Shown: piece after piece, positions 60,705 to 63,495 of the stretch
Position numbering within the stretch: position 1 is the first letter of the stretch
How the letters are laid out: each line of letters begins with the position of its first letter
From: a virus
IMG/VR virus record: IMGVR_UViG_3300032265_000877
Coordinates: 23,611 to 87,610 of that record
DNA: 64,000 bases
Strand: one strand, 5' to 3'
The notes under the pieces: model-generated
Told to the model about the DNA's origin: nothing
Databases searched by the model: none
Seen by the model: only the letters and a program-made list of their open reading frames with translations
Program-made: the position numbers and the translations under genes

Positions 60705-60781
60705 CTGATAGTTTCCTGAGAGTCGGCTGATAGTCCATTCTCAGGGAACTCTCAGGGAATAAATTGGGTGTAGTGTCCGTT
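60705..60781 (+). promoter_or_regulatory. ECF promoter P1 (GGAAT-N18-GTT) with phased MprA-like boxes
   Basis: CTGATA/CTGAGA/CTGATA at 60705/60716/60727; TCTCAG-N5-TCTCAG 60739-60755; GGAAT 60756, GTT 60779. Confidence 0.8.
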
Positions 60782-60833
60782 ATACAGGTACAGGGCAAGC
60801 ACAAGGCAAGCCCGAATAACAAGGGAAACGATT

Positions 60834-61382
60834 ATGAATCAGCAGGAAATGGGCAAGGCTGTATCAGATTATTACGACACTCTCTACTCTGTCGCGTTTA
60901 ATCTCACACGCGATCATCACAAGGCGAATGATCTCGTGCAGACTACGGCAGAGAAAGCGATCAAGGCGAGCGATTCCTTCTCAGAGGGTAATCTCGTTGG
61001 GTGGCTCGTTACGATTCTCCGTAACACTTTCCGTAACGATTACCGCGCGGAAGATCGCATCTCTTTCTCCTCTATTGAGGAACTGATCGAGCAGGGCACT
61101 ACGGCTGAGGATTCACTTCTCGCCAGCGATGAGGATAGCGAGCAGGGTTCAGATTCTCGCTTCTCTAGCGCGAGCGCGGAAAGCGTGTTCCTCTCTGGTG
61201 GCTACTCTCCAGAATTGGCAAGTGCCTTGCAGAATATCTCAAAGGCTCACCGCGACATTCTTCTTCTCAAGGCTGAGGGCTACTCATATGAGGAAATAGC
61301 AGAAATCCTCAAGATCGAAGTTGGCACAGTAATGAGCCGACTAGCCCGCGCTCGTAAGTCAATAAAGGAAGTGCTCGTATGA
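60834..61382 (+). CDS. ECF RNA polymerase sigma factor, SigH/SigR-like
   Basis: LYSVAFNLTRD..ANDLVQ.T..KA..F..GNL.GWL..IL.NTF.N.YR (sigma2); EGYSYEEIAEIL....GTVMSRL.RAR (sigma4). Confidence 0.92.
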   Translation: MNQQEMGKAVSDYYDTLYSVAFNLTRDHHKANDLVQTTAEKAIKASDSFSEGNLVGWLVTILRNTFRNDYRAEDRISFSSIEELIEQGTTAEDSLLASDEDSEQGSDSRFSSASAESVFLSGGYSPELASALQNISKAHRDILLLKAEGYSYEEIAEILKIEVGTVMSRLARARKSIKEVLV

Positions 61383-61480
61383 GCCTCCTAAATCCCCTAG
61401 TCTCCGGTCTCCCAATCACAGTAATGTGGTTGGGAGCTGGGATCTGTTTCGCAGTAGCCTACTTTAAGGGAGGAAAATAG
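61379..61480 (+). CDS. Single-TM micro-protein (33 aa) coupled to sigma gene
   Basis: MSLLNPLVSGLPITVMWLGAGICFAVAYFKGGK; ATGA overlap. Confidence 0.55.
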   Translation: MSLLNPLVSGLPITVMWLGAGICFAVAYFKGGK

Positions 61481-61612
61481 ATGGGCAAGATGAAGGAATT
61501 GGCACTTAGGATCGCAGAGTGTGAAAAGTGTGAGGGCGCGGGAATCCTGAGCCACACGCGGGACGATGTGGACTATGAGTGGGCGTGTGAGTGTAATCCA
61601 TACGGACTCTAA
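61481..61612 (+). CDS. Zinc-ribbon micro-protein (43 aa)
   Basis: MGKMKELALRIAECEKCEGAG..WACECNPYGL; GGAGG RBS. Confidence 0.7.
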   Translation: MGKMKELALRIAECEKCEGAGILSHTRDDVDYEWACECNPYGL

Positions 61613-61618
61613 GAAGTG

Positions 61619-61638
61619 GGGCGCGGGAAACCGCGCCC
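61619..61638 (+). terminator. GC-rich hairpin after sigma operon
   Basis: GGGCGCGG-GAAA-CCGCGCCC; weak U-tract. Confidence 0.6.
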
Positions 61639-61794
61639 TATCTATTAGCCCTGTCAAGGGCTAGGCAATTGGGTTTGGCATAGTCCAACACAAACATATG
61701 AACGGCATTCGGGTAAGGCGTAATAAATTGAACCCTATAAAAGACATTAGACAAAAGAGAGCAAAACGTCTAACCCTCAACTAGCACTTCATTC

Positions 61795-61847
61795 CTGAGA
61801 GTTACCTGATAGTTAGCCGAGGGAATAATATGGGGGGTCTATTTGTT
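61795..61847 (+). promoter_or_regulatory. ECF promoter P2 with phased MprA-like boxes
   Basis: CTGAGA 61795, CTGATA 61806; GGAAT 61822, N18, GTT 61845. Confidence 0.78.
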
Positions 61848-61888
61848 CTATAAGTGTAAGACCACTACTACTACAAGGGAGCAAGACA

Positions 61889-62179
61889 ATGGATAGATTT
61901 TATACAAATAACACCTATGATGTGTCTGACGCGCAGGATTTTAAAGTGCGTGTAGCAGATCCACTAGACGCCGACATATATTTAGGTATGGAGGCTAGTG
62001 GCTGGGCTGGGAGCAATTCAGTATCTTTCTACGCTATCCAGAACCTACGCTTAACGCGGGCTCAGGCTAATCAGATCATTGACGCGCTATCTAACGCTAT
62101 CGGTGAGTATGAGGAGGCTAAGGCTCTCGCAGAGTATGACTCTCAGCGCGACTCTATCTTCGAGGAGGAGTCAGTATGA
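61889..62179 (+). CDS. Early hypothetical protein
   Basis: AAGGGAG RBS; first gene after P2. Confidence 0.75.
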   Translation: MDRFYTNNTYDVSDAQDFKVRVADPLDADIYLGMEASGWAGSNSVSFYAIQNLRLTRAQANQIIDALSNAIGEYEEAKALAEYDSQRDSIFEEESV

Positions 62180-62415
62180 GCGTCCTAGAGGAAATTCGCT
62201 ACACGCACTCTCTCCAACAGCATAGCGTGACGCGTGAGATGGTGGCGGAGGAATTCGCCACCCTCGAAAGTGACTTCGACAAGGGCTACGCCCTCGATCA
62301 GATTATCGGACACCTAGAGTTAGATAAGAAGCACGGACAAGAGTCGTTCCCACTATGGACGGCGTGGCGTGTAATCCGCGCAATAAATGCAGACTCCTAC
62401 GGACTGAGGGACTAA
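62176..62415 (+). CDS. Early hypothetical protein
   Basis: GAGGAG RBS, ATGA overlap. Confidence 0.72.
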   Translation: MSVLEEIRYTHSLQQHSVTREMVAEEFATLESDFDKGYALDQIIGHLELDKKHGQESFPLWTAWRVIRAINADSYGLRD

Positions 62416-62690
62416 TGGGACACAATTTTGCTGAAGACTTGGCTAGTGGGGATCTACGACTCTCACTAGAAGATCAGATCGGTATCCACCTATCGAGTAA
62501 TCATTACCCGCCAGTACCGCAGAGTATGGTCGCGCCTTGCATAGAGGCTATCGAACTCTGTAATGCAGGAGATCAGGGAGAATTGGTAGACCTGCCGGAC
62601 GGAATTCTATGGAAAGGCGAATCACAAGCGCCAGCCTACGCCATAGTAGAGGCTCACCACCTAGACCCTTGGATAGAGTACTTCGAGTAA
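62415..62690 (+). CDS. Early hypothetical protein
   Basis: Start MGHNFA at TAATG overlap; HLSSNHYPPVP..IVEAHHLDPW. Confidence 0.75.
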   Translation: MGHNFAEDLASGDLRLSLEDQIGIHLSSNHYPPVPQSMVAPCIEAIELCNAGDQGELVDLPDGILWKGESQAPAYAIVEAHHLDPWIEYFE

Positions 62691-62703
62691 CTATCCAAAA
62701 CGA

Positions 62704-62738
62704 TAAGCGCCCTATTCCCTTGGGGCGCTTATTTATTT
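62704..62738 (+). terminator. Intrinsic terminator
   Basis: TAAGCGCCC..GGGCGCTTA followed by TTTATTT. Confidence 0.7.
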
Positions 62739-62832
62739 ACTCCCTAAACGGCATTGGGTTAGGCATTCAACACAAACATTGTGGCATTGGGAATAGGGCA
62801 TAAATCAACAAACGTTCCCTATTTTTTATTCC

Positions 62833-62895
62833 CTGAGAGATTCCTGAGAGTTATCTGAGAGTCGGTGATGGAATAAATAGGGGGGTGTAAGTGTT
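62833..62895 (+). promoter_or_regulatory. ECF promoter P3 with phased MprA-like boxes
   Basis: CTGAGA at 62833, 62844, 62855; GGAAT 62870, N18, GTT 62893. Confidence 0.8.
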
Positions 62896-62946
62896 CAACT
62901 ATTGAGAAGATCGACAGGCGATCACTCTAAAGCAGAAAGGGACAAA

Positions 62947-63141
62947 ATGCTTACAGCACAACAGAATCGAGAGGTAGTTGATCTCGTAAACGCGCTATCG
63001 GGTTCACTTCTAGTGGATCAAGGCTTGATCGTAGAAGCGATCAAGGATAACGACGATATTCACGGGCTAATTTATAAGTGGCTCACACGCGGTGGGGTCG
63101 ATTACTCCACAATAGTTCAAGCATTCGGGGAGGTGTTCTAA
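62947..63141 (+). CDS. Early hypothetical protein
   Basis: Start MLTAQQN after GAAAGGGA RBS. Confidence 0.7.
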   Translation: MLTAQQNREVVDLVNALSGSLLVDQGLIVEAIKDNDDIHGLIYKWLTRGGVDYSTIVQAFGEVF

Positions 63142-63335
63142 TGACCACTATTCACGCTGGCGATCACACTACTGATTGCCCTACCTGTAAGGCTAATTGT
63201 TCTTGCGGTACTTGCGAGCAGAATGCGCGCATAAAGGACAATATGGATAGCGATCTAGACTATGCGCTAGAAGCGGGCGACTTCGATATGTTTATGGATA
63301 TATTCGAAGACCGCGACCCATTCGAGTTCCTATGA
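63141..63335 (+). CDS. Cys/His-rich, acidic-tailed small protein
   Basis: MTTIHAGDHTTDCPTCKANCSCGTC..DFDMFMDIFEDRDPFEFL; GGAGG RBS. Confidence 0.7.
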   Translation: MTTIHAGDHTTDCPTCKANCSCGTCEQNARIKDNMDSDLDYALEAGDFDMFMDIFEDRDPFEFL

Positions 63336-63484
63336 GCCGTAAAGATTATCGAGCACTAGCGGAGGCGCTGAAAGGCGCCTCTGCCACCCCACAGGTAATT
63401 GCAGCAGTCTCACGAGTGCTTGCAGATGATAATCCCCGCTTCGACTGGCAAAAGTTTGCCCTAGCGTGTGGAATAAATGACTAG
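63332..63484 (+). CDS. Small conserved phage protein (50 aa)
   Basis: MSRKDYRALAEAL..DDNPRFDWQKFALACG; ATGA overlap. Confidence 0.72.
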   Translation: MSRKDYRALAEALKGASATPQVIAAVSRVLADDNPRFDWQKFALACGIND

Positions 63485-63495
63485 TGTTAATTGTT
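63470..63495 (+). promoter_or_regulatory. ECF promoter P4
   Basis: GGAAT 63470, N18, GTT 63493; no clear phased boxes. Confidence 0.7.

Follow-up and report, generated by a model that had tools for sequence, protein, structure and literature searches.

Sigma factors encoded by phages are known above all for diverting transcription to promoter classes of the phage's own, which serve middle and late genes. T4 gp55, for example, is a sigma-type factor that redirects the host core polymerase to phage promoters. The same is described for the sigma-type factors gp28 and gp33/34 of the Bacillus phage SPO1 (PMC13401047; this and the papers cited below are drawn on for the parts of their text that were available). 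For cellular systems, promoters read by sigmaH only in Corynebacterium glutamicum have the form GGAAt...GTT and sigmaE needs GGAAC; the GGAATAA of PtrxB1 is a typical strong sigmaH-specific -35 element, and homology models place the Met (sigmaH) or Arg (sigmaE) position in contact with bases -31/-30 (PMC10012870). Related consensus sequences exist for SigH of M. tuberculosis and of C. glutamicum and for SigR of S. coelicolor (PMC3489674). Here we analyse the final 64,000 nucleotides (nt) of the 87,610-nt viral record IMGVR_UViG_3300032265_000877 (positions 23,611 to 87,610; hereafter the window, whose end is the contig end), in which four sites of the form GGAAT-N18-GTT, named P1 to P4, accompany a gene for a sigma factor of the extracytoplasmic function (ECF) type. 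We consider it probable that P1–P4, whose consensus is GGAATAAA-N14-TGTTCTA, function as promoters of the ECF type (sigmaH/sigmaR class) and head four transcription units, and the sigma-headed block probably switches itself on. Transcription at P1–P4, the sigma that reads them, priming by the host and timing are matters of inference.

The four sites named in the original prediction are all present where it placed them, all on the + strand and all of the more specific form GGAATAA-N16-GTT, with GTT exactly 18 nt past GGAAT (Table 1). The looser pattern GGAAT-N18-GTT matches eight times in the window against 1.63 expected, a count reached in 0 of 100 shuffles; among its other + strand matches, one (13721) falls within a minus-strand coding stretch and two (24848 and 35162) within two genes that both match phrog_2295. 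With GGAATA-N17-GTT, four sites on the + strand and one on the minus strand fall within 60690–64000 (3,311 nt), where 0.01 per strand would be expected and the maximum count over 200 dinucleotide-preserving shuffles was 1. The remainder of the window (1–60689) holds one on the + strand and none on the minus strand, and the 23,610 nt of the record that precede the window hold none on either. A weighted scan with relaxed settings, run over all 87.6 kb of the record, returned many weak matches and no additional site of the top-score class. Across the record, the motif is non-random, strand-specific and restricted to the sigma-headed block, in support of the prediction. The block also coincides with a change of gene direction: in the 84 kb of the record outside it, which include 1–60681 of the window, nearly all genes are on the minus strand, the direction switches at 60682–60833, and every gene from 60834 to the window end lies on the + strand.

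Between GTT and the start codon that follows it lie 52 nt at P1 (ATG 60834), 41 nt at P2 (ATG 61889), 51 nt at P3 (ATG 62947) and 26 nt at P4 (ATG 63522), and each of these start codons is preceded by a purine-rich AAGGGA/GGGAGG stretch. P1–P3 are located in intergenic gaps, P2 and P3 each after a strong hairpin, and these hairpins close units 1 and 2. P4 overlaps the 3' end of the open reading frame (ORF) at 63332–63484 with no terminator ahead of it, and by this layout is an internal promoter and not an operon start after a stop signal. The sites had been described as each lying upstream of a ribosome-binding site and an operon start; a ribosome-binding-site-like stretch is found everywhere, but the second half of that description does not hold for P4, which lies over the end of the preceding ORF. 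The fifth exact copy, on the minus strand, is kept in three close relatives (L012, L015 and L016; see below) and not in L020 or L021, and its function as a promoter is uncertain. As a side observation, it is aimed at the bidirectional-looking hairpin at 62702–62733 and could yield an RNA of ~100 nt.

The shape of the motif was derived from relatives. Eight phage sigmas were aligned and used to scan metagenome contigs, in which 273 stretches encode a relative; 80 loci were kept, and the motif was examined in ten of these (L012–L021), whose sigmas are 44–93% identical. GGAATAA-N15..17-GTT stands ahead of the sigma gene in all ten. Sites with N18 on the sigma strand number 6 in L015, 7 in L016 and 8 in L021, and the opposite-strand flanks of L014, L016, L019 and L020 hold 0. 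Because L016 and L021 are collinear with the window to 64000 and then continue with more promoter-gene units (including, in L021, a gene with a P-loop motif), the window by this comparison holds only the first part of the block, with further promoters beyond the contig end. The 34 N18 sites reduce to 25 unique cores. After GGAAT, the next three positions are A in 25/25, 23/25 and 21/25 of them; GTT is preceded by T in 23/25 and followed by C, T and A in 20/25, 22/25 and 23/25, and all 14 columns of the spacer carry 0.68 bit or less. The resulting consensus is thus two blocks with a free spacer. P1 sites form a subclass, since 6 of the 7 distinct P1 variants have CGTT, with a spacing of 17, 18 or 19 nt, and all other unique sites have TGTT at N18. 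Most informative is the spacer, which varies more than any other stretch although its surroundings are conserved: by inspection, it differs between the window and L021 at 10 of 15 positions for P3 and at 7 of 15 for P2, and both blocks are unchanged at each. In viral contigs at large the bare two-block pattern was found in at least 116 stretches, and the 80 of them that were listed are all single matches.

This pattern agrees with the published sigmaH/sigmaR-type GGAAT-N18(19)-GTT as given in the available parts of PMC10012870 and PMC3489674, so the assignment to the SigR consensus stands. The further likeness that had been drawn to SigH and SigE promoters alike is kept for sigmaH alone: the phage sites are sigmaH-type and not sigmaE-type, because an invariant T occupies the position at which sigmaE of C. 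glutamicum and M. tuberculosis requires the C of GGAAC (PMC10012870).

The first gene after P1 encodes the sigma factor, in which Sigma70_r2 (9.1e-14, 51.5 bits) and Sigma70_r4_2 (1.3e-12, 47.6 bits) both exceed their Pfam cut-offs and TIGR02937 (sigma70-ECF) is matched with 81 bits, its cut-off being 42.9. Small, with regions 2 and 4 only and scores above threshold, it belongs on these matches to the ECF (group 4) branch of the sigma-70 family. Among solved structures (PDB), M. tuberculosis SigH (5zx2_F, E 4.4e-17) gives the best full-length match. Its region 4.2 helix has the sequence PIGTVMSRLHRGRR, that of the phage protein EVGTVMSRLARARK; the recognition helix GTVMSRL is identical in the two, and SigE chains have GTVRSRI, with R in place of M. 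By homology, we expect this helix to be the one that reads the phage's own -35 element. The top-scoring NCBIfam model is TIGR02947 (SigH_actino), at 100.4 bits against a cut-off of 251.55, and by that equivalog threshold the protein is not a SigH/SigR orthologue, that is, not a member of that actinobacterial group (ECF12 type). No zinc anti-sigma domain (zf-HC2, E<=0.1) was matched anywhere in the 87.6-kb record, which is 92% complete, and neither of the two tiny ORFs that follow the sigma gene (33 and 43 amino acids, aa) has an anti-sigma match in PHROGs, the 43-aa ORF also lacking a Pfam match. Because there is no such domain in the record and the two ORFs are without a family assignment, the factor may be unrestrained. 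The 43-aa ORF, with its CxxC pattern, was considered as a zinc anti-sigma and rejected, as it has no HxxxCxxC and no Pfam match and is not conserved in L021. Of the description of the protein as SigH/SigR-like, what remains is an ECF factor with SigH as its best solved relative and the GTVMSRL helix; orthology, by TIGR02947, and an accompanying zinc anti-sigma do not.

A protein search returned 1,724 proteins at E<=1e-10, falling into a tight group at 84–100% identity, a gap, four at 40–47%, and then cellular-type ECF sigmas at ~34–42%. In a scan limited by a pattern, whose 80 loci are mostly cellular with sigmas <=39% identical, the cellular relatives that come closest (33–39% identity) belong to Gemmatimonadota and Alphaproteobacteria. 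Among viral contigs, a scan with the single protein found two close sigma relatives, and the scan with the alignment added the distant L011 (23%). Across phage sigmas that are 42–49% identical the recognition helix is invariant.

Ahead of P1–P3 and of many sites in relatives stand CTGA(G/T)AGT boxes, in 2–4 copies with an 11-nt period, the last of them 15–18 nt ahead of GGAAT; on its + strand the 87.6-kb record has 11 copies of CTGA[GT]AGT, and 7 of these precede P1–P3. Such arrays, with GGAATAA embedded in them, also occur in two near-complete phages that have no sigma (L293, 4840–4900; L295, about 7900–8000, minus strand), a few hundred nt before a terminase-like gene. Both the position of the boxes and their presence in sigma-less phages would suit a housekeeping sigma helped by an activator bound to the phased boxes, with GGAATAA as part of the activator site and not a -35 element. 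However, P4 and several of the relatives' sites are without boxes and yet keep both blocks at the exact spacing, a sigma-70-type promoter scan of 59500–64000 found none on the + strand, and a GTT that is invariant and held at a fixed distance, with the spacer free to vary, is characteristic of sigma sites made of two blocks. We therefore regard this explanation as very unlikely. A host factor is a reasonable candidate for the protein that binds the boxes, because they also occur in the sigma-less phages. MprA, whose M. tuberculosis site consists of two 8-bp direct repeats 3 nt apart, was considered for this role and not adopted: the literature searched yielded no mycobacterial consensus, and the C. 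glutamicum MprA motif TKTTAAGAAM has no resemblance to the boxes. A pair of direct TCTCAGGG repeats between the boxes and P1 is absent from the P1 regions of L013, L014, L017, L019 and L020. The element TTAACCCTGGGGGGTGTCTGATAGTT further upstream is largely invariant in an alignment that includes relatives with a sigma only 44–47% identical, and it looks like a degenerate copy of the promoter module, its -35 element spoiled and its spacer extended by 2 nt. That the minus-strand genes have an ECF promoter of their own, pointing leftward (GGAAAC...GTT, ~60690–60720), was also considered there and rejected, the GGAA not being kept in L020.

The least probable account, to which we give very little weight, is that of a repeated cassette without promoter function, in which an intergenic module was duplicated for recombination, replication or packaging. 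It would be in keeping with the blocks shared by the gaps at 61613–61888 and 62691–62946 (CAACACAAACAT, GGCATTSGG and the boxes), with the ends of this record's contig and of several relatives' contigs in the region, and with the proximity of the box arrays to a terminase-like gene in the sigma-less phages. Against this, paralogous and orthologous copies keep the two blocks as the spacer changes freely, the orientation always agrees with that of the downstream genes, and the distances to the start codons are promoter-like.

The motif was also compared with the presence of the sigma. A pattern of two boxes plus GGAATAA was found in three additional viral contigs. Two of these, 94% and 99% complete, have no sigma relative and 0 GGAATA-N17-GTT sites; the third, a 35% fragment, has one such site near its end. 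Streptomyces phage BRock, which has no sigma region 2, gives 2 forward and 0 reverse matches against 0 and 3 for a control (reversed) pattern, which is chance level, and the counts are likewise at chance level in Bacteroides phage BS162P1, whose sigma is 28.6% identical. These observations, though from a small sample, fit a link between this sigma clade and this promoter.

We thus favour a model in which the phage sigma binds the host core RNA polymerase, its region 4.2 (the GTVMSRL helix) reading GGAAT and its region 2 reading GTT, and drives its own P1 in a positive feedback, as well as P2–P4 and the sites past the contig end. The first sigma molecules would probably come from reading of P1 by a host sigmaH-type factor; P1 is set apart from the other sites by its CGTT -10 element and variable spacing, and the remaining genome would use housekeeping-type promoters. 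An alternative arrangement would be for the sites to be read solely by host sigmaH/sigmaR, tying the block to host thiol or heat stress; the phage sigma would then act elsewhere, for instance on genes of the host or on promoters within the 8% of the genome that is missing. The motif is indeed identical to the published sigmaH-specific consensus, GGAATAA included, in the available part of PMC10012870. However, the phage sigma shares its region 4.2 helix with SigH and would be expected to bind the same -35 element, and the arrays start where the sigma gene lies and are found together with it, counts in sigma-less records being zero or at chance level. In addition, host sigmaH is normally held by an anti-sigma, a poor basis for a block with at least ten promoters. 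We consider reading by the host factor alone unlikely. A bolder extension, which we put forward tentatively and hold to be doubtful, is that the phage sigma is a SigH/SigR mimic free of any anti-sigma, forming a stress-triggered, all-or-none switch that also activates the host sigmaH regulon. Trace amounts of free host sigmaH, released by thiol or heat stress or by infection, would fire P1 and feedback would lock the block on; host thioredoxin, mycothiol, chaperone and repair genes would be turned on as well, for example feeding the phage ribonucleotide reductase, and the 121-aa protein made from the last promoter would compete for -35 sites, closing the loop.

Several points weigh against our preferred model, that of P1–P4 as promoters of the phage's own sigma. 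Positions 1–5 and 24–26 of the logo are set by the search pattern. The intergenic regions of the relatives are conserved overall, at a mean column identity of 82–85% that is above that of the sigma protein, and, of the 25 sites, many are related as orthologues or paralogues and are not independent; for these two reasons conservation of the bare motif is weak evidence. The control for co-occurrence consists of three sigma-less records. The sigma falls below the SigH equivalog threshold. The motif is also the same as the consensus of the host class, so that each of the sites could be read by host sigmaH without the phage factor. The -10 flank, TGTTCTA in the phage, differs from the (C/T)GTTGAA given for the host in the available part of PMC3489674; the CTA could reflect tuning to the phage sigma, or a different host. 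Finally, it would be unusual for a phage sigma to serve only small genes within a few kb and to leave out the structural ones.

Elsewhere in the genome, the gaps between minus-strand genes are enriched in the words TATAAT and TTTTTGCT, and in several of them a terminator hairpin is directly followed by TTTTTGCTATAAT, TGCTATACT or TTTTTGCTTTAT, a housekeeping-type extended -10 element. The contrast that the original prediction drew with the promoters of the minus-strand region fits these extended -10 elements, with TTTTTGCTATAAT and TGCTATACT standing after terminators. Judged by this distribution, the ECF-type promoter is not used for structural or replication genes.

The record is classed as linear and 92% complete, and matches in PHROGs to a tail sheath, baseplate wedge and portal, as well as to a large terminase and to collagen-like fibres, identify the phage as a roughly 90-kb myovirus. 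Two WhiB-family genes are present (58.5 and 58.4 bits against a cut-off of 23.6), a family that among 14 control genomes has matches only in Corynebacterium. Judged by the large terminase, no cultured relative comes closer than BRock (53% identity); identity to the terminase of Bacillus phage BCD7 is 41.5%. Because of the two WhiB genes and the terminase relatives, the host is likely to belong to the Actinobacteria; the phage G+C content of ~46% is, on composition, a poor fit to Streptomyces or mycobacteria as the host genus. Megablast of positions 60000–64000 of the window gave no match among cultured phages. An integrase or resolvase of the tyrosine or serine recombinase type was not found in the 92%-complete record, and a temperate lifestyle was rejected on that ground. 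A search of sequencing runs found 20 DNA runs and no RNA run with this DNA. Its sampled words were recovered at 0.99 in one of the 20, which may be the source sample, and at 0.21–0.28 in the rest, which are labelled metagenome, aquatic metagenome or freshwater metagenome; the runs were used neither for expression nor for habitat.

The remaining genes of the block are small (Table 1). The hydrophobic ORF that starts on the sigma stop codon has a counterpart at the same place in the diverged L021 (1145–1294, 49 aa), where the 43-aa ORF is not conserved at the corresponding position. In the P2 unit, the first and third genes have recognisable homologues in L021 and the second gene of L021 is not visibly similar. 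The 121-aa protein shares 13 of 24 residues with region 4.2 of the phage sigma (pairwise E 1e-4), with Ser in place of the Met, and has a 126-aa homologue in L021; it may be a stand-alone reader of -35 elements, and is a candidate modulator of P1–P4-type sites. The non-coding element that follows it spans ~150 nt, continues in L016 (8884–9040) and L021 (3512–3668) and has a strong terminator at its end. One of its hairpins shows two compensatory pair changes between two sequence types, and an Rfam scan that included the element found no credible family. In several leaders (61848–61888; L016, 9241–9290; L021, 3882–3920), GTGTAAGAC(C/A)A...ACTAC repeats lie between the -10 element and the ribosome-binding site. 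The relatives also have promoter-like GGAATAA...ATGTTTGTGTTGACCCGCCCGCCC sites with no ORF after them (L016, 9057–9100; L021, 3676–3720 and 5211–5260), and CAACACAAACAT, the complement of ATGTTTGTGTTGACCCGCCCGCCC, recurs in two large gaps of the window (61686–61697 and 62768–62779); these sites and words may represent short non-coding transcripts or replication-related repeats.

Table 1. Features of the sigma-headed block and of related regions (window positions unless marked as record positions; promoter and gene assignments are predictions)
Feature	Position	Strand	Remarks
Conserved element TTAACCCTGGGGGGTGTCTGATAGTT, upstream of P1	60688-60713	+	Largely invariant in a 6-sequence alignment
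Three CTGA(G/T)AGT boxes, 11-nt spacing, upstream of P1	60705-60734	+
Two direct TCTCAGGG repeats, 3 nt apart	60739-60757	+	Boxes in opposite orientation; second overlaps P1 GGAAT by 2 nt
P1, GGAATAA-N16-GTT, CCGTT -10 element	60756-60781	+	Putative sigma unit promoter
ECF sigma factor, 182 aa	60834-61382	+	Pfam, TIGR02937 and PDB match
Hydrophobic peptide ORF, 33 aa	61379-61480	+	Start overlaps sigma stop codon (ATGA); no family match
43-aa ORF, CxxC...CxC pattern	61481-61612	+	Final gene of sigma unit; no Pfam; weak PHROG match, E 0.0064
Terminator-like hairpin after sigma unit	61616-61641	+	-25.3 kcal/mol, z -4.72; kept among the relatives
Phased box pair ahead of P2, CTGAGAGT and CTGATAGT	61795-61813	+
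P2, GGAATAA-N16-GTT, TGTTCTA -10 element	61822-61847	+	Both blocks invariant in 5 sequences, spacer varies
Three small genes, function not assigned	61889-62179, 62176-62415, 62415-62690	+	No family matches
Terminator hairpin, then T-rich tail	62702-62733	+	-21.5 kcal/mol, z -6.44
Fifth exact GGAATAA-N16-GTT, leftward	62807-62832	-	No ORF after it; 15-mer CTCTCAGGGAATAAA in common with P1
Three phased boxes upstream of P3	62833-62862	+
P3, GGAATAA-N16-GTT, GTGTTCAA -10 element	62870-62895	+
Three small genes, function not assigned	62947-63141, 63141-63335, 63332-63484	+	No family matches; L021 homologues, order kept
P4, GGAATAA-N16-GTT, TGTTCTA -10 element	63470-63495	+	Without upstream boxes; orthologous sites in L015, L016, L020, L021
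121-aa protein, C-terminal helix-turn-helix resembling sigma region 4.2	63522-63887	+	Pfam Sigma70_r4 E 3.6e-4, below cut-off
Conserved non-coding, possibly structured element	63886-64000	+	Start only (cut by contig end); collinear with L016/L021
WhiB-family gene and 171-aa protein with signal-like N-terminus	52206-52962	+	Small island amid minus-strand genes
Second WhiB gene	record positions 16294-16518
Gaps with hairpin and extended -10 element	49124-49194; 21482-21574; record ~11550-11660	-

Taken together, it appears that the sigma carried by this actinophage shares its specificity with a host stress sigma and serves a self-contained, self-activating block of small genes. If this is true, the locus would be a compact natural positive-feedback circuit made of one orphan ECF sigma and at least four, probably at least ten, matched promoters, and would offer phages of Actinobacteria a route for sensing or imitating host stress signalling. 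Within the available literature, in which most subscription journals lay outside the search, we found no published phage with sigmaH-type promoters or a SigH-like sigma.

Among cellular systems the locus resembles that of SigH (C. glutamicum, Mycobacterium) and SigR (Streptomyces coelicolor), in which the same two blocks occur at the same spacing, with T at -31 and often as GGAATA(A) (PMC10012870, PMC3489674, in part). The two-domain ECF build and the GTVMSRL helix of M. tuberculosis SigH are shared as well, and the sigma gene is preceded by a promoter of its own class, as are sigR and M. tuberculosis sigH (PMC3489674, in part). The phage gene differs in being phage-borne and below the TIGR02947 cut-off, in having no zinc anti-sigma of the RshA/RsrA type adjoining it or elsewhere in the record, and in its targets, which are small genes without assigned function, whereas those of the host are thiol and heat stress genes. 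By sequence, then, the promoter class and the self-promoted sigma gene match actinobacterial SigH/SigR, and membership in the orthologous group fails on two tested features.

The closest phage systems, on our comparison, are those of the coliphage phiEco32 and the Salmonella phage 7-11, which are likewise lytic phages with their own diverged sigma and a low-copy conserved promoter motif (PMC4331800, in part). In these phages the sigma gene is preceded by the phage motif together with host-type promoters, giving sustained expression, the promoters consist of a single ~9-bp element (tAATGTAtA) unlike the host classes and serve middle and late genes, structural genes included, and an inhibitor of the host holoenzyme is also encoded (PMC4331800, in part). 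No such inhibitor was identified among the scanned genes of the present phage, most of which are without assigned function. Its promoter, in contrast to theirs, is a two-block ECF type equal to a host class and would serve only the small-gene block. In SPO1 and T4, such factors take most of the genome over from early expression to the middle or late class, whereas here most of it appears to keep housekeeping-type promoters. On this comparison, the present phage differs from phiEco32 and 7-11 in three respects: a promoter of a host class, targets confined to small genes, and housekeeping-type promoters in the remaining genome.

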